From Mobula hypostoma (Eukaryota): a stretch of DNA of 64,000 bases. How positions within the stretch are numbered: the stretch's first letter is position 1; each line of letters begins with the position of its first letter. The notes under the pieces were generated by a model. It was given only the letters and a program-made list of their open reading frames with translations. It made no database searches and was not told the origin of the DNA. Shown one piece after another: positions 1-56,380 of the stretch. The position numbers and the translations under genes were made by a program. The stretch spans positions 22,942,001-23,006,000 of the forward strand of contig NC_086097.1 of NCBI RefSeq assembly GCF_963921235.1, given 5' to 3'.

Positions 1-120
1 GTCTTGGTTTGTCTCGTGTTTCTGTGATATCATTCTGGAGGAACATTGTATCATTTCTTAATTCATGCATTACTAAATGACAGTAAAAGAGGACTGCGTG
101 TCCTCATAATCTAATCTAAT
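1..120 (+). mobile_element. 3' end of a LINE-type repeat with (CTAAT)n tail
   Basis: Ends in TAATCTAATCTAAT, a short tandem tail typical of non-LTR element 3' ends; cut by the window start. Confidence 0.5.
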
Positions 121-280
121 TTCAGTGAACGGGTGAGTGAAGTTGAGTGAAGTTATCCCATTTGGTTCAAGAGCCTGATGGTTGAGGGGTAATAACTGTT
201 CCTGAAAGTATGTTTATGTAACCATATATCTCCCCCTCCCCCTCCAACTTTCAAATCCCTTACTCACTCTTCCTTCAGTT

Positions 281-312
281 AGTCCTGACGAAGGGTCTCG
301 GCCTGAAACGTC
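281..312 (+). ncRNA. Minimal hammerhead ribozyme, truncated at the GUC cleavage triplet
   Basis: AGTC-CTGACGA-AGGGTCTCGGCCT-GAAAC-GTC, then a jump to upstream PLE sequence. Confidence 0.75.
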
Positions 313-403
313 TCCATCCCTCCCCCTCCTGTCTTCTCCTATCATTTTGGATCTCCCCCTCCCCCTCCAACTTTCAAATCCCTTACTCACTCTTCCTTCA
401 GTT

Positions 404-439
404 AGTCCTGACAAAGGGTCTCGGCCTGAAACGTCGACT
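404..439 (+). ncRNA. Minimal hammerhead ribozyme with G8A core mutation
   Basis: AGTC-CTGACAA-AGGGTCTCGGCCT-GAAAC-GTC-GACT. Confidence 0.7.
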
Positions 440-1827
440 GCACCTCTTCCTAGAGATGCTGCCTGGCCTGCTGCGTTCACCAGCAACTTTTATGTGTGTT
501 GCTTGAATTTCCAGCATCTGCAGAATTCCTGTTGTTTGCTACCCTGAGATTCATTTTCTTGCAGGCATTCACAGTAGAACAAAGAAATACAATAGAATCA
601 ATGAAAAACTGCATACGTGCACATACTGACAAGCAACCGATGTCCAGAAAAGACGAACTGTGCAAATACAAAAATATAATAAAAAAAGAAAGAAAATAGA
701 TGTACAATTCAATAAATGCACAGTGCAGAGTACCCTGACTGGTAACAGCAATGCCTGGTATTGAAACACCAAAGCACAAGAATGGAAAAGCCTAAAAAAT
801 GTCGGGATACAGCTCAGTCCATCACAGAAAAAATCCTCCCCAGCATTGAACACATCTCCAGCGCCACTACGTTGAGGTATTGTTACAGACATCATCAGAG
901 CACTTTCCCTTAATCATTCATGCAATATACAGTTAGACATTTAAACTCTTGTGGTTTTGTTAGGTAAAGGTATTGAGGGTTGCAGAACCGAGGTGGGTAG
1001 ATGGGATGTTGCACAGATTAGTCCACCTTTGGAGTCTTCTAAATAAATATCCAGGAAGACACTCCAGTAATGTATTAAATGGATTTCCAGTTTAGTTAAA
1101 TATTAAAGTTCAATTCTGGGTTCCTGACAACATATCTCCCTCAGTCAGCAATTTCTGAAAAACAATATTTGAACATGTCTACTATAGTAATTGTGAGATC
1201 TTAAGAGCATAGAACATAGAACACTACAGCGCAATACGGGCCCGCAATGTCTTCTACTGTACCTTCTCCAAAGACTCTGCACCCTCTCCTGTAACGGGGT
1301 GGCCAGAATTGCACTCTGCTACTCCAAATGCAGCTGAAGTCAAGTTTTATGTAACTGCAGCCTGAGGTAACTGGAATTAAAATGTTGTTCAATTGTGGTC
1401 TTACTGCACGGTAGAAGAGGGGTAATGGGCTGAACAGTCTGCTCATGTTCACAGATCCAAAGTATTATTCATTCTGTGCTGGGAAGAGCTGGAGTGGTGA
1501 ACAGCAGATGCATAGGGGCAGGGTGCACTGGTGGGGAAGGGGAAGAAAAGCTATTTCTTTCTTTCCTGCAACCTGACAGCTTGCAACTGAAAATATAGGA
1601 GCCGAAATGGTGGGAAATGAGTATGTTATGCATTGAAGTCATTTTTATTCTTAAACCCATGAACATGTCAGTATAACGGTCTTTTGCAGTACCAGGCTGA
1701 GATCTGTTCAACCTATCTGAGCAATGAGGAAGGATTGAAAGAGCAAGGGCTTTTCTCTTTGGAGAGGAGGATGAGAGGTGACATGATAGAAGTGGATAAG
1801 GCGGGTCTGGGGAAGACGGAGTCTGCG

Positions 1828-17303: not shown

Positions 17304-17898
17304 TATCTGATAATTTTGTTGGAAGAAGTGATGATGTTATCACTTGCAGAAATGGAGCTTTGAGTAGGTACAAAATTTAGATTTCTAACCTTGTTAATGG
17401 ATCAGGCTTGAATCAGGTGTGAAACAGATGCACACCAAACTCTGTATAAAGAAGAAGAATTAATACATCCTGTTCCAATAAAACAAAAAGCAGAAACTAG
17501 ATTTAATGATTCTATTATGTTCCTGGGCTCTGCAGTGTCTTGAGCTAAATTAACTCCTCCAAACTGAGGTGGTGCTTGTCACCAGCAGAGGCAAATTTGC
17601 ATTGCATTTAATAAATTTGAAATTGCCACTGGTGACACTCTCTTAGTTTATGTTACAGAGAAAATACAACTCATCGTGTTTGTTAAGTAGCTACTATGTT
17701 GATGACTAAACTTTTGGAAAATTAATTTATACTATGGAGAAATTACAAGTCATAAAATACAGAGAATTAGAAGCACTTCAGCAAAAAGTTCCAAAATTGT
17801 ATTTTATTTTCAGAAATGTGTCTCAGCCACTGGACTAGTTTTCAGTTTTAAATCTTCAAAGTTCAAAGTACGTTAATAATCAAAGTATGTAATACTTT

Positions 17899-18034
17899 GT
17901 CCTGATGAAGGGTCTAGGCCCAAAACGTCGACTGTTTACTCTTTTTCATAGATGCTGCCTGGCCTGCTGAGTTCCATCAGCATTTTGTGTGTGTTGCTTT
18001 GGATGTCCAGCATCTGCAGATTTTCTCATGTTTG
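17899..18034 (+). mobile_element. PLE 3' end starting at hammerhead (G12A)
   Basis: GTC-CTGATGA-AGGGTCTAGGCCC-AAAAC-GTC-GACTG plus tail. Confidence 0.8.
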
Positions 18035-18615
18035 TATATGTCTGAGACTTATTTTCTTGCAGGCATTTGCAGTAAAACAAAGAAATACAACAGAATCACT
18101 TAAAAAAAACTACACAAAAAGACCAACAAAATATCAATGTGCAAAAGAAGGCAAACTGTGCAAATGCAAAAAAAGAACAAATAATGATAAAAATAAATTA
18201 GTTTTTTTAGTACTTAAACAAAAATGTCTTTGCTCACTATGTGCTAATTTTGCTTTAAACCTTAAAAGTTAAAACAGAAGGTATATCGGACACAAATAGA
18301 TCATTCATAAACACCAGGAATTCTGTAACTCTCTATACTGAATTGTTTCCCACATCAGAAAAAGTGCAGTCAAATTTTAAATCCCCAAAAATCAGTAGAG
18401 CAATATTATCTGGACATTTATCTGTAACAACGTCAGTTGATGGATAGAAGTTTACATTGGGTTAAAATAAGTCCGTCCTGGGCTGATGGTGGCTCAGTTA
18501 ATGTTCCCTTTAAAAGACAGCACACAAAGTAGGGCAGTATTTCATCTCTTGAAAGACAATACAGTATGCCTAATAGTATAACGGTTATACTATACTACAC
18601 TGTACTATTAGCCAT

Positions 18616-19450
18616 CTATGGAAAAGAGTAAACAGTTGATGTTTTGGGCTGAGACCCTTCATCAGGACTGAAGACTTTTTTCCTCCAGTCCTGATGAAAG
18701 GTCTCTGCCCGAAATGACGACAGAGTCTTTTGCATAGATTTTAGTCATTGTCATAGTCATATTTTATTGATCCCAAGGGAAATTGGTTTTCATTACAGTT
18801 GCACCATAAATAATTAAATAGTAATTTAAAAAAACCATAGATAATTAAATAGTAATATGTAAATTATGCCAGTAAATTATGAAATAAGTCCAGGACCAGC
18901 CTATTGGCTCAGGGTATCTGACCCTCCAACGGAGGAGTTGTAAAGTTTGATGGCCACAGGCAGGAATGACTTCCTATGACGCTCTGTGTTGCATCTTGGT
19001 GGAATGAGTCTCTGGCTGAATGTACTCCTGTGCCCAACCAGTCCATTATGTAGTGGATGGGAGACATTGTCCAAGATGGCATGCAACTTGGACAGCATCC
19101 TCTTTTCAGACACCACCATCAGAGAGTCCAGTTCCATCCCCACAACATCACTGACCTTACGAATGAGTTTGTTAATTCTGTTGGTGTCTGCCACCCTCAG
19201 CCTGCTGCCCCAGCACACAACAACAAACATGATCACACTGGCCACCACAGACTCGTAGAACATCCTCAGTATTGTCCGGCAGATGTTAAAGGACCTCAGT
19301 CTCCTCAGGAAATAGAGACGGCTCTGACCCTTCTTGTAGACAGCCTCAGTGTTCTTTGACCAGTCCATTTTGATAGTTCTTCCAGAATTTTGTACGTGTT
19401 GCTTGGATTTGCAGCATCGACAGCTTTTCTCTTGTTTGTGATTGGAACAG
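18616..19450. mobile_element. Inverted PLE-end pair with two back-to-back hammerheads, interrupted by a LINE
   Basis: Minus HHR ~18633-18670 and plus HHR ~18686-18722; TSD TATTAGCCAT (18606-18615, 19451-19460). Confidence 0.7.
18742..19367 (-). mobile_element. Rex1/Babar-type LINE 3' fragment
   Basis: ORF 18901-19368: KKGQSRLYFLRRLRSF, FYESVVAS, SHPLH, RKSFLPVAIKLYN; (GACTAT)-like tail. Confidence 0.9.
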
Positions 19451-31317: not shown

Positions 31318-32734
31318 AAACAACAGGAATTCTGCAGATGCTGGAAATTCAAGCAACACACATCAAAGTTGCTGGTGAACGCAGCAGGCCAAGCAGCATC
31401 TATAGGAAGAGGCGCAGTCGACGTTTCAGGCCGAGACCCTTCGTCAGGACTAACTGAAGGAAGAGTGAGTAAGGGATTTGAAAGTTGGATGGGGAGGGGG
31501 AGATCCAAAATGATAGGAGAAGACAGGAGGGGGAGGGATAGAGCCAAGAGCTGGACAGGTGATAGGCAAAAGGGGATACGAGAGGATCATGGGACAGGAG
31601 GTCCGGGAAGAAAGACAAGGGGGGGGGGACCCAGAGGATGGGCAAGAGGTATATTCAGAGGGACAGAGGGAGAAAAAGGAGAGTGAGAGAAAGAATGTGT
31701 GCATAAAAATAAGTAACAGATGGGGTACGAGGGGGAGGTGGGGCCTAGTGGAAGTTAGAGAAGTCGATGTTCATGCCATCAGGTTGGAGGCTACCCAGAC
31801 GGAATATAAGGTGTTATTCCTCCAACCTGAGTGTGGCTTCATCTTTACAGTAGAGGAGGCCGTGGACAGACATGTCAGAATGGGAATGGGATGTGGAATC
31901 CCTGAGATCCTGCTTTCTCCGGCGGACAGGGCGTAGATGTTCAGCAAAGCGGTCTCCCAGTCTGCGTCGGGTCTCACCAATATATAAAAGGCCACATCGG
32001 GACGCAGTATATCACCCCAGTCGACTCACAGGTGAAGTGTTGCCTCACCTGGAAGGACTGTTTGGGGCCCTGAATGGTGGTAAGGGAGGAAGTGTAAGGG
32101 CATGTGTAGCACTTGTTCCGCTTACACGGATAAGTGCCAGGATGGAGATCAGTGGGGAGGGATGGGGGGGACGAATGGACAAGGGAGTTGTGTAGGGAGC
32201 GATCCCTGCGGAATGCAGGGGGGGGGAGGGTAAGATGTGCTTAGTGGTGGGATCCCGTTGGAGGTCGCGGAAGTTACGGAGAATAATATATTGGACCCGG
32301 AGGCTGTTGGGGTGGTAGGTGAGGACCAGGGGAACCCTATTCCTAGTGGGGAGGCGGGAGGATGGAGTGAGAGCAGATGTACGTGAAATGGGGGAGATGC
32401 ATTTAAGAGCAGAGTTGATAGTGGAGGAAGGGAAGCCCCTTTCTTTAAAAAAGGAAGACATCTCCCTCGTCCTAGAATGAAAAGCCTCATCCTGAGAGCA
32501 GATGCGGCGGAGACGGAGGAATTGCGAGAAGGGGATGGCATTTTTGCAAGAGACAGGGTGAGAAGAGGAATAGTCCAGATAGCTGTGAGAGTCAGTAGGC
32601 TTATAGTAGACATCAGTGGATAAGCTGTCTCCAGAGACAGAGACAGAAAGATCTAGAAAGGGGAGGGAGGTGTCGGAAATGGACCAGGTAAACTTGAGGG
32701 CAGGGTGAAAGTTGGAGGCAAAGTTAATAAAGTC
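31318..32734 (-). mobile_element. Penelope-like element (Neptune-type), 5'-truncated: RT C-terminus, GIY-YIG, 3' UTR, hammerhead
   Basis: DFINFASNFHPALKFT..LPFLDL..VYYKPTD..SSHP..CKNAIPFSQFLRLRRICS; GVIYC..GLLYIGETRRRLGDRFAEH; perfect 13-bp TSD AACATTCCAATAT (31305-31317, 32735-32747); frameshifted. Confidence 0.93.
31416..31451 (-). ncRNA. Intact minimal type I hammerhead ribozyme in the PLE 3' UTR
   Basis: Minus strand AGTC-CTGACGA-AGGGTCTCGGCCT-GAAAC-GTC-GACT. Confidence 0.8.
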
Positions 32735-33021: not shown

Positions 33022-33245
33022 GACAACATTTCTGTTGTTGCTGGAAATCCAGAGCAATACATTAAATGCTGGAGGAACTCAGCAGGTCTGGCAGCACCTA
33101 TAGAGGGGAATAAATAGTTGACATTTCGGGCTGAGACCTTTCATCAGGGCTGGTGAAAGGTCTTGGCCTGAAGCGTTAACAGTTTATTCCCCTCCATGGA
33201 TGCTCCCTGACCTGCTGAGTTCCTCCAGCATTTTTATGTGTTGTA
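33022..33245. mobile_element. Palindromic PLE-end pair joined at the hammerhead cores
   Basis: ...CTTTCATCAG GG CTGGTGAAAG... centre at ~33148, ~90-bp inverted arms; probable TSD AA(G/C)TT(A/G)TGCTGAA. Confidence 0.8.
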
Positions 33246-34049
33246 AACTTGTGCTGAAATTCTTTTGGTCATTGTTTTGACTGTTTTGGGTATAGCTGTG
33301 GGATAGTTCTATTGAGAATCACTGTCCGTCCTTGCAATGAAATGAGTTCTCAAAAAATCTGAACTGGTGACTAATGATAGCCCACCCATGTATTTAAGCT
33401 TTTCAGGTTCATTATTTGTATTAAGTCACACATCTTGCAGCCTATTTAATCTTAATAAATGACTTATATTGATTGATTTTGTGCTGAGATTCCCCTTGTA
33501 AATATTAATGATTGCTAGTTGCAGGGACATGGGGTAGAATGTTGAGATCAAGTCACTTGGACAACTGTAATATTGATCTTCCTTTAATCTACTATAAAAT
33601 GGAGAAGTGTGTAACATGCTGGAACACAGCCAACCATCACATTGTGTTTCTAATCTTTGAACATTCTGGCAAGAGCGTCTCAGTGGGGCACACAGAACCG
33701 ACCTTCTATTTTCCAAAGAAAATTGTAGCTTGTTTGTACTTGCTTTTAGTTCCAGGTGTATAAGTCTTGGTAATAAAATACAGATATATCTCATCGTGAG
33801 GTGACATAATGCTCCTGAATAGAATTATTTGTCATAGCTGCAGGACCCTGAGGAGTTCTAATTGGTGCAAAATCTTTCTTGCATGGTAAGCTGTTCTGCT
33901 TCAAGTGCATGATGTCATTGAATGGGCCAGCCCGTTCAAATGAAAACTTTTTTTTTCATTCTCTGGATGTTAGTGTTCCTAGTAAGGATCTGGGCTTACT
34001 GAGATTCTTGAAAATCCACATTAGCTACAGGTCACTCATAATTTTTGGC

Positions 34050-34390
34050 AACAAAAAATCTACTGGAGGAACTCAGCAGGTTGATCATCATCCGTAGGAG
34101 GAAAGGAATTGTCAATCCTGATGAAGGACCTTGGCCCGAAACATCGACTGTTCATTCCTCTCCATAGGTACTTCCTGACCAGCTGTGTTGCTCCAGCATC
34201 TTGTGTGTGTTGCTCTGGATTTCCAGCCACTGCAGAATCTGTTATGTTAAGGAACTGCCAATGTTTTGAATCGAAACCATGTATCAGGATCTGAAGTACT
34301 GACAATTTCTTCCCCAGCACAGATGCTGCTCGACTGCTGAATTCCTCCCGCAGATTATTTGCTGCTCTTGATTCCTGCTTCTCCTGTCTC
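34050..34390. mobile_element. Nested PLE 3' ends (younger copy 34116-34245 inside an older inverted pair)
   Basis: TCCTGATGAAGGACCTTGGCCCGAAACATCGACTG plus tails in both orientations. Confidence 0.7.
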
Positions 34391-34590: not shown

Positions 34591-36448
34591 AGCTCATTGT
34601 GACTTGTTTTTTTGAAAGTAAACATATGGGCCTGGATCTTGCCATTGGTTTCAAATTAAACTGATGGGAATTACCCATTTAAATGGAAGCTTTGAATAAG
34701 ACTTCATCGCAAGTGTGCAAAAGAAAATGTTGTTTTATCATTATTTACTTCAGTTTAAACTGTTTTAAAATTTTTTATTACTGTCAGAGACAGACAGTGA
34801 CTTTGAAGGTATGCGTAGCGTAGGTTTGACAGTTGGCAAAGCTGGGAGTTATATTTCCCTTTTTTATTGCTATTTTGTGCGATTTTGTTCGGGCCAGACT
34901 GGCACTGCAGTCAATGAGTGGCACAGCACCAAACTGAACTGAACTGAACTAAACTGAACATCCCTAGACTGTTTCAATGTCTCTGTGGCTTAATGTTTTA
35001 TATTCTGTTTTTCGCTCATTCTTTGCCCTTTGCGTGATTTTTTTCTTTTTTTTTTGCCCATTGGGTATTTGATGTTTTCTTGGAACGGGTTCCAAGGTGT
35101 TTCTTTGTTTCACGGCTGTCTGTGGGTGGACAAATCCCAGGGTTGTAGACTTTAATAATAAATGTACTTCGAATCTTTGAATCTATTGACAGGTGTTCAG
35201 TAGTGTAATAGAGGTGGCATTTTCTGATTGTGTTGTTGGTGACTCAGTCACTGCCCAGGCGACACCACCGGAAATTGGGATGCTCCAGATCTCTGACGTG
35301 AGTGCTTTGTATCCAGAATGGGTAGGTGTGAGAGTGGGACAACTGCAGGCATTGATAGGAGATAACAGACACAAAGTGCTGATGAAGAGTCTTGGCCCAT
35401 AACATTATCTGTTTATTACCCTCTATAGATTATGCCTGACCTTCTGAGTTTCTCCAGCACTTTGCATGTGTTTCTCTGGTTTCCAGCATCTGCAGAATCT
35501 CTTGTTGTTATTGACAGTTGACAGAAGCCTTGACCCATAATGTTCAGTCCATAGCTAGTTGATTAAACTCCCCATCTTTCATCATCATCAATATAAAGAC
35601 TTTTAGAGTCGTAGAGTATGAAGCACAGAATCAAATCATTTGGCCCATCTAGTCGATGTTGACTTGATCTTCTGCCTAGTCCCATCCATATGCACCCCGA
35701 CTATATCCCTCCAAACTCCTTTTATCCATCTACTGATCGAAGGTTCTCATAAAGCAGGGGTTCCCAACCTCCATGGCATAAGAAAAGTTGGGAACCCCTG
35801 ATTTAAATGCTATGTTTGATTCTGCATCCACCACGTCCGCTGACAGGTCATTCCACACTTACATCAACCAGCCTCTGAGTTGTAGTCTCACCCACCCTAA
35901 GCGGAACAAGCCTGTTTGCACTGCAGGTGTAAGTCAGTGGGACTTGGCAAAACATAAGTACGGCATGGACTAGATGGGCTGAAGGGCCTGTTTCCATGCT
36001 GTGGTGCTCTATGACTCTGACCTCTGAATCCCCTTGTGCGGGGCTTGCGTGCTGTCTGTGTGGTCCTGTAGATCTCTCCCCAAGTGTTCAGGCTTCCATC
36101 CACATCCCAAAGATCTACTGGTAGGTGAGAGGGCAGCTAAGGATTGCCCATGGTTTAAGTGAGTTGAAGAATCTATGGGAAATTCTTGGAAAGGATAAAA
36201 TGGTTTGAGTGTCAGCCCTGACTTATTGGGTCAAAGGACCATTTCTGTGTTGCACGACTTTAAGCCTACGCCAGTTTTTGAATTAAATTGGTAACTTTTG
36301 CTTCGTTTAACTGGGTAAATGAATTCCCAGAGTTTTCACATGTCAAGTGAAATGCCCATTACATATACGGTATAATTGATGTATTATTGGAGATATAAAT
36401 ACAAATTAGAAATTATTCAATACATGTGTAGGTGAAGAATAAAACGTA

Positions 36449-51180: not shown

Positions 51181-51855
51181 ATAAAATAAATGTGTAGGCC
51201 AGAGAGATCAGCATCATGTTCAGCATAGAAATTGGGGAACTAAGGGCCTGTCCCTGTGATGTGCTGTTCTATATTCTATATGGACCATATAACGGGGAGA
51301 TATCAAATAAAACTTAGAAAATAACTTCTCCCTCTTTTCATAAAGAGAATTCATGTTTGCTAAATGAATAGAATCATCAAAATAAAAGGCATTCTAGTTC
51401 TGAGCAATGAGATCGCATTACCTTCATTCGTCAATCTCAGAAGTAGACATGGCTTCCCTCTCCCCATCACCAACCACCTGAGACAAGTTGCAGACTTTTG
51501 TTTTCACAGTGCTATCATTGACAAGGTAGACTGCTGTGTTGGATGTTCATCCTGTGAAGACAACGTGAGTCAGAATAATGCATATTTGGAAGAGTGGCCA
51601 GGAGCTATAAAAGCCACCATCTAGATAAGTGCATGGTCAGGAGAAGCTTGTGGGGGGCTGGGTTATGGAACAAATGTGGGTTCGCTGGGCAACACACTTG
51701 GACCAAAGGGACAGTTTCCATGATGTATAACTCTGACGGCCAACTTTCACTGAGGATAAGCGGAATGTCAACTAATCTCATTTAGAAACACAGATTCTGA
51801 GTCCTGATGAAGAGTCTGAGGCCAAAGCGTTGATTCTTTAATCCTTTGCATAGAT

Positions 51856-51931
51856 TAGGGGTTCCCAGCCTTTTTTATGCCATGGGCACCTGTTATTAAC
51901 TGGTCAGTGGGCACCAAGTTGAGAACCCCTG
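51856..51931. mobile_element. hAT MITE inside a PLE 3' end (51800-51990)
   Basis: 8-bp TSD GCATAGAT/GCACAGAT. Confidence 0.8.
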
Positions 51932-51990
51932 GCACAGATGTCGCCTGACCTGCTGAGTTCCTCCAGCATGTTGTGTGTGCTTTTCTGGAT

Positions 51991-55776: not shown

Positions 55777-56380
55777 CAAACACGAGAAAGTCTGTAAATG
55801 CTCGAAATCCAAACTAACACACACAAAATGCTGGAGGCACTCAGCAGGTCAGGAAAGGATGAAACCGTCGACGTTTCAGGCCAGGACCCTTCTTTAGGAC
55901 TGAAAAGGAGGGGGGAAGATGCCAGAAGGAAAAGGTGGAAAGAGACTAGCTCCTGTGCCAAGATGAGGCCACCCTCAGGGTGGAGGAGCCACGTCTTATA
56001 TTATGTCTGGGTACCCTCCAAGCTGATGACATGAATATTAATTTCTCCTTCCAGTGTACAGATTCCAACCCCTCCACACTTCCTCTATTCCCCACACTTT
56101 TATTTCCCCCGGGTCCCTTCCTCCTTCCTTTTTCCTACTGTCACTCTTCTCTCCTGTCATATTCCTTCTTCGACAACCTTGACCTTTCCCACCCACCTGA
56201 CTTCACCCATCACCTTCCAGCCAGCATCTTTCCCCTCCCACAATTTCTGTTCCTGGCATCTTCCCTCTTCCTTCTCAGTCCTGATGAAGAGTTTCAGCCT
56301 GAAACGTTGACTGTTTATTTATTTCCATAGATGCTGCCTGACCTGCTGAGTTCCCCCAGCATTTTGTGTGTGCTGCTTTC
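55777..56380. mobile_element. Inverted tail-outward PLE pair in one TSD, two hammerheads (55865-55902 minus, 56276-56313 plus)
   Basis: Perfect 13-bp TSD CCCTCATTCATTA (55764-55776, 56381-56393). Confidence 0.88.

Follow-up and report, generated by a model that had tools for sequence, protein, structure and literature searches.

A tandem insertion of a ray Penelope-like element with its junction at a predicted hammerhead cleavage site

Near the start of the stretch of Mobula hypostoma DNA that we analysed (64,000 nucleotides, called the window below), two partial copies of a Penelope-like element stand in direct tandem, and the upstream copy stops at the predicted cleavage site of its hammerhead ribozyme. 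Does this junction record a jump of the reverse transcriptase (RT) onto a self-cleaved RNA end, as the initial annotation proposed, or did a polymerase switch templates at this position by chance?

Structure of the tandem insertion

Self-comparison of the window revealed an 85-nt direct repeat (228-312 and 351-435), with copies that lie 123 nt apart and are 99% identical. The upstream unit ends ...GAAACGTC at 312 and is directly adjoined by TCCATCCC, a sequence that sits 122-123 nt upstream of the hammerhead nucleotide C17 in an independent longer copy of the same family (31318-32720, minus strand), which we used as the reference. Since a C also precedes the restart sequence in this reference copy, the C at 312 is common to both sides; the 312/313 junction has 1 nt of homology, and the break lies after either U16.1 or C17. 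When element positions are numbered relative to C17 (C17 = 0), the tandem consists of -83..0 followed by -122..+103 (Table 1). These results uphold the initial annotation on two points: that the upstream copy stops at 312 and is joined, with about 1 nt of homology, to sequence from about 120 nt upstream, and that the breakpoint is the predicted ribozyme cleavage site, which is C17 with an ambiguity of 1 nt and a stem I register confirmed across related loci.

The insertion proper spans 229-538, with bases 228 and 539 each common to the element and to the host repeat in which it lies. The joined flanks rebuild an older host repeat from which only 228 and 539 are missing, as judged by four other copies of this repeat in the 64-kb window, and the empty site is restored without loss or duplication of target sequence. 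The tandem was made by one insertion event, with either one template switch or one later deletion; this single event, its end points and its 1-nt homologies can be read directly from the locus. Three other origins are ruled out: simple tandem duplication of genomic DNA, by the element sequence at 313-350 that has no upstream twin; two separate insertions, by the host repeat that resumes at 539 with no tail left over; and rolling-circle copying, by a junction that does not rebuild the ribozyme. When contigs of four public runs were compared with the reference copy, the 312/313 junction was absent among the best 15 of 1006 and the best 12 of 427 joint rows. Searches with the open frames that by chance span the junction yielded 4 and 3 proteins, none of which showed a tandem. 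We also note that members of this element family inserted separately at 200-620 and at 17860-18106 into the same type of host repeat, at sites that differ by a few bases.

Table 1. Coordinates of the tandem insertion, its parts and the reference copy in the window (element positions relative to C17 = 0)
Feature	Position	Strand	Basis
Host repeat, left part (target)	200..228	+	Joined flanks match 4 other host-repeat copies; base 228 common to element
Upstream unit, -83 to 0, stops at predicted cleavage site	229..312	+	98.8% identity with the 31-kb reference copy (-84..0)
Upstream predicted minimal type I hammerhead: stem I 5' arm 280-284, core CTGACGA 285-291, stem II, GAAAC-GTC; stem I 3' arm missing	280..312	+	Motif scan and PMC4209133 descriptor
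Go-back junction	312..313	+	C at 312 fits C17 and -123
Downstream unit, -122 to +103, 5'-truncated, long tail	313..538	+	96.9% identical to reference copy
Downstream predicted hammerhead, complete stem I, G8A at 413 (CG to CA)	403..440	+	
Tail past cleavage site, stops at the family's commonest 3' end (putative reverse transcription start)	436..538	+	15/33 window fragments end +91..+102
Host repeat, right part; no target-site duplication or deletion	539..620	+	Flank comparison
Reference copy, same young family: broken RT C-terminus, Cys linker, GIY-YIG, 3' UTR, intact hammerhead (C17 at 31420), tail	31318..32720	-	

The element family and its hammerhead

From its sequence, we assign the family to the endonuclease-bearing Penelope-like elements, with an RT followed at the C-terminus by a GIY-YIG domain, of a ray. 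The reference copy's protein shares 93% identity with a gene model of Mobula hypostoma, and both RVT_1 and GIY-YIG occur in full-length relatives; the GIY-YIG remnant of the reference copy itself (E 0.008) falls below the Pfam cut-off, and the full-length relative P0040 passes it for GIY-YIG. The 3' UTR of the reference copy is pyrimidine-rich. The reference copy has the linker CKRNKCYTC, with cysteines that are invariant in the alignment of relatives; a Cys-rich CX2-5CxxC linker between RT and endonuclease defines the Neptune-type clade (PMC8557442). By this linker, a motif that Nematis shares, the family would be of Neptune type. It is abundant, with about 30 fragments in 64 kb and 290,486 aligning contigs in one public run. 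Within 31953-32166 of the reference copy, public run X1 gave strong support to a go-back joint (32165 to 31953), a duplication of 212 nt inside the ORF end that many copies carry. DNA pattern scans of viral, metagenome and prokaryote collections gave no matches, and none of 37 candidates in viral contigs was confirmed by a protein scan. Contigs from two bacterial genome bins within the prokaryote collection contain animal Penelope-like elements that have hammerheads (L081-L087), most likely as host contamination. Each of the six host gene models that we examined (P0001-P0006) has an apparent exon made of a short stretch of the hammerhead region, in antisense orientation in four Mobula models and in sense orientation in two proteins, and the antisense stretches stop at GTGAGT, which resembles a splice donor.

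The motif has the features of a minimal type I hammerhead, namely a CUGANGA and GAAA core, stems I and II, a palindromic helix III and an NUH triplet. No Rfam hammerhead model matches it, and the assignment is based on a published descriptor (PMC4209133) and on covariation of stem I across families. Stem I (TAGTC/GACTG) begins on the base directly after C17, and its arms covary in the same register in related loci of other animals (GAGTC/GACTC, AAAC/GTTT, TTCAA/TTGAA, TACA/TGTA and GGCTT/AAGCC). Thus, C17 is correctly placed. Folded without protein, the active dimer reached -11.7 kcal/mol, compared to -31.7 kcal/mol for the best dimer fold; such a predicted disadvantage would agree with the behaviour of the Anolis motif, which is reported to need protein for cutting (PMC11167929). 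DNA folds place no stable stem edge at C17, which rules out a hairpin pause there. About 30 of the loci L024-L079 (for example L038:4178, L044:3449 and L072:3396) have a hammerhead-like core that ends in CGAAAC-CGTG or similar, without a GUC-type triplet in the usual place, and in this group a stem of 3-6 bp often forms one base past GAAAC; this core is possibly a variant or a non-cleaving motif.

The only difference between the two units of the tandem is a G to A change at 413, the G8 position of the downstream core, within a CG dinucleotide. G is found at this site in five of the six young copies that cover it, and the A is private to this copy. G-to-A and C-to-T were the commonest changes in both genome-scale public runs, and G8A is most likely CpG decay. 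The initial annotation had rightly recorded that the downstream copy, with its G8A core, retained its tail (436..538), but the role that it gave to this change is not supported: the change is a CpG transition, tails are kept in all four other young copies with intact cores, which rules out G8A as the cause of tail retention, and the logic of the dimer is the opposite. In a dimer, the core of one copy would cut the bond of the other, as the legend to Fig. 1A of PMC4209133 suggests, such that the downstream core would cut the upstream bond. If so, a G8A change already present in the RNA would spare the upstream bond, opposite to what a jump onto a cut end needs.

Copy ends in the family and in pLTR tandems

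If cleavage at C17 commonly defined copies, C17 might be expected as a recurrent 3' end. Of the 33 family fragments in the window, 14 have their end at +56..75 and 15 have it at +91..102, two zones that correspond to an optional tail of 30-40 nt; three end at +22/23 (one of them interrupted by another element), and one, the tandem itself, ends at C17. Similarly, among the best 24 of 4319 loose-end rows obtained by comparing public-run contigs with the reference copy, the +102 end was the largest in both genome-scale runs (371 and 322 contigs), and C17 was absent. None of the six go-back joints among the best 12 of 427 rows ended at C17; the two in the hammerhead region ended at +79 and about +69. 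Thus, the public runs rule out C17 as a main end, but a minor peak would be invisible in these best-supported rows, with counts curtailed in the two genome-scale runs.

We also examined copies in 87 related loci, which yielded 49 alignment rows, or 30 same-family copies after removal of 5 duplicates and 14 cross-family matches to the core only. None of these 30 copies ended at C17, and all extended at least 20 nt beyond the site. Thirteen of the 14 cross-family rows do stop no more than 2 nt from the site, because homology between families stops there (12 of the 13 came from queries of a motif variant without a defined cleavage triplet); these 13 and the fourteenth, L005, align between different families only over -25 to -71. 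These comparison copies represent mostly ordinary ends and inverted arms with few direct tandems, of which the 64-kb window itself holds one, and so test the class of go-back tandems indirectly.

At the 5' side, 3 of the 33 window fragments begin within 5 nt of the cleavage site, all of them old copies with uncertain edges. Eleven others have 5' ends at -28..-37, which is the 5' edge of stem I and not the cut site (fragments at 2144, 2594, 6042, 17896, 18672, 33156, 33140, 34111, 35375, 40132 and 51798); inverted arms start at -30 (L083) and -27 (L009), and one public-run joint restarts at -31. This spot follows a pyrimidine tract and CAG, resembling a splice acceptor, and in the Drosophila virilis Penelope an intron ends at the corresponding place (PMC4209133); in old copies the edge may be partly loss of alignment. 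Head-to-head or inverted pairs of ends occur at 2494-2643, 18613-18739, 33023-33266, 34051-34248, 35343-35507 and 55779-56378. In the pairs near 34110 and 35370 the start of one arm seems to lie near +1 and that of the other near -31; inverted homology is provided there by the arms of stem I. At 51798-51990 an old element end is interrupted at about +22 by an insert of about 77 nt with inverted ends, probably a small DNA transposon.

Since the junction had been proposed to show how pLTR tandems form, we asked what the upstream hammerheads of such tandems look like. Six related loci carry a minimal hammerhead that lies 5' of the RT and on its strand (L010, L012, L014, L023, L026 and L063); in all six, stem I is intact across the site, with 3-6 bp, and in L014 both repeats reach at least +60. 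Four further upstream matches are without stem I (L018, L024, L048 and L050); three of these look like chance, and L048 is a variant motif. Therefore, ordinary pLTR tandems are not joined at C17, which contradicts the proposal. Nor does the insertion studied here have the canonical pLTR form: the upstream unit breaks off at C17, and what comes next is 3' UTR sequence, with no ORF-bearing copy. Copying of multimeric RNA from internal starts would explain ordinary pLTRs without a jump, as work on other elements suggests (PMC11167929; PMC6765202).

Explanations for the junction and known systems

How readily would a random junction fall at C17? If breaks occur in the last 125-230 nt of the element, 0.75-1.4% of random junctions would be compatible with C17 (0.14% over the 1.3-kb reference), and 40% of random restarts have one base of left-side homology. 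One or more C17 matches would be expected with a probability of about 0.2-0.3 among 30 junctions, 53-75% among 100 and over 0.9 among 300, with the figure of ~100 comparable junctions being a guess, not a count, based on the one direct tandem of this window and on 173 windows scanned in this genome. A single C17 junction, picked after the fact from many windows, is weak evidence.

We favour, with a probability of about 0.6, an ordinary complex insertion of a Penelope-like element in which a polymerase template switch at 1 nt of homology matched C17 by chance. The endonuclease of the element would cut the host repeat without loss or duplication, and reverse transcription of uncut RNA would start about 103 nt beyond the hammerhead and reach -123. 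A polymerase would then switch templates once at the single common C and copy -83..0 again, and this second copy would join the host through the single common A. The switch might be made by an RT that lands inside a second uncut RNA or skips along a multimeric RNA; alternatively, top-strand synthesis might start at -84 on the cDNA and slip back to the cDNA end. In either case the landing at C17 would be a coincidence, and G8A would arise afterwards by CpG decay. First- and second-strand synthesis cannot be told apart because the two units share no private variant, and we infer the polymerase, the strand and the coincidence of the C17 landing.

We favour this reading because the insertion is clean and single, because 29 of the 33 window fragments end at the two usual zones and only one at C17, and because neither the 30 related copies nor the 6 go-back joints (best 12 of 427) end there. 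It is also favoured by findings on the Anolis element (PMC11167929): RNA with a dead ribozyme inserts normally, the main substrate is uncut RNA, initiation occurs internally, and RNA-seq reads neither begin nor end at the cut site. The distance of the active dimer from the best predicted fold is a further point in its favour. Against it stand the break exactly at one chemically special bond, a ~1% outcome for a single junction, and the DNA folds, which predict no structural reason for a pause at C17. Of the interpretation first given to this locus, one insertion event that involved a polymerase template switch over 1 nt of homology, and the break at the predicted scissile bond, are supported; the role of G8A is not supported, and the pLTR origin is contradicted.

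We considered that the RT might instead have copied RNA from +103 to -123 and jumped onto another RNA at its 3' end, left by hammerhead cutting at C17, with the last G of the cDNA pairing with C17; the cut 5' product would stay paired in the dimeric hammerhead and so be held close to the RT. We regard such a jump as possible but doubtful. It would fit the exact position, the single C:G pair and the single insertion event, and the three old window fragments that start no more than 5 nt from the site, with their uncertain edges, also point this way. Moreover, the Anolis element protein, which is predicted to be a dimer, switches on hammerhead cleavage in vitro (PMC11167929), and a retroelement RT can jump onto RNA ends: R2-based OTTR captures some RNAs with 3'-phosphate or cyclic-phosphate ends, although cyclic-phosphate ends are captured better after PNK treatment (PMC12140624). 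However, there is one case only, one base of homology is common by chance as calculated above, no second C17 end appeared in the window fragments, the related loci or the best rows of the public runs, and G8A, if already in the RNA, would disable the cut of the upstream bond by the downstream core.

A later deletion, in which a longer tandem (upstream pLTR, body and downstream pLTR) inserted and then lost the sequence between C17 and -123 by end-joining repair, seems improbable to us. Homology-mediated deletions do disable many rotifer Penelope copies (PMC3846280), and skip joints are common in the ray family in the public runs, but the homology here is 1 nt only, the copy, at 97% identity with the reference, is young and so has had little time, and the landing at C17 would still need chance. 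Least credible is joining at the RNA level, in which a 5' product of hammerhead cutting was linked by ligation to a fragment that starts at -122, through its 5'-OH, and the chimera copied in one pass; such an origin would likewise be a record of cutting in vivo. Cyclic-phosphate and 5'-OH ends suit host ligases, and ligation of cut Penelope RNA has been proposed (PMC4209133; PMC6765202), but the proposed ligation rejoins C17 to +1 and rebuilds the ribozyme, whereas here C17 joins -122, where no cut is predicted.

More broadly, minimal Penelope-like hammerheads may cut in the germ line and the dimer-paired 5' product may sometimes serve as acceptor for an RT jump, with this junction as one fossil, a C17 peak among non-canonical tandems, and a side path rather than the origin of pLTRs; we regard this proposal as possible but doubtful. 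The abundance of the family makes a breakpoint histogram on a public assembly a cheap answer. If present, a C17 peak would be evidence at the genomic level that cleavage takes place in the germ line and that a telomerase-like RT jumps end to end; the single junction does not show either.

In R2, the template jump of the RT proceeds through one base pair, and the ribozyme sets the template's 5' end, not the 3' end of the acceptor. The end-to-end template jumping of the Bombyx R2 RT is a parallel for a jump to an RNA 3' end (PMC12140624; PMC10274639), and the R2 ribozyme frees the element from its co-transcript (PMC6765202); template jumping by a Penelope-type RT was not found in the literature examined. 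Likewise, our search of largely open-access literature found no report of tandem junctions at a Penelope hammerhead site. The Poseidon element PAc of Anolis (Frangieh et al. 2024, PMC11167929) resembles the ray family in having two internal RT starts downstream of the hammerhead that define copy ends, with uncut RNA as the main template, but differs in that it belongs to another clade and that no RNA-seq reads end at its cut site; template jumps are not reported in the parts examined. The ray motif also resembles the minimal hammerheads described for Penelope-like elements of metazoans (Cervera and De la Pena 2014, PMC4209133) in its type I core, the unpaired base before stem II, the short stem I, a palindromic sequence at 15.2-16.2 and the need for a dimer; that work explains tandems by cutting, circularisation and more-than-unit copying, with no genomic cut-site junction reported in the parts examined. 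Complex tandem and inverted insertions of Penelope-like elements have already been described (PMC8557442; PMC3846280). Unlike pLTR tandems, the ray tandem has no ORF between its repeats and its upstream unit has no post-hammerhead sequence, but it is similar to the pLTR and complex insertions of endonuclease-bearing Penelope-like elements, which have an optional 30-40-bp tail, in its 5'-truncated units in direct tandem, in short-homology 5' joining without target-site duplication, and in the two 3' end zones about 33 nt apart with head-to-head pairs nearby (PMC8557442; PMC3846280).
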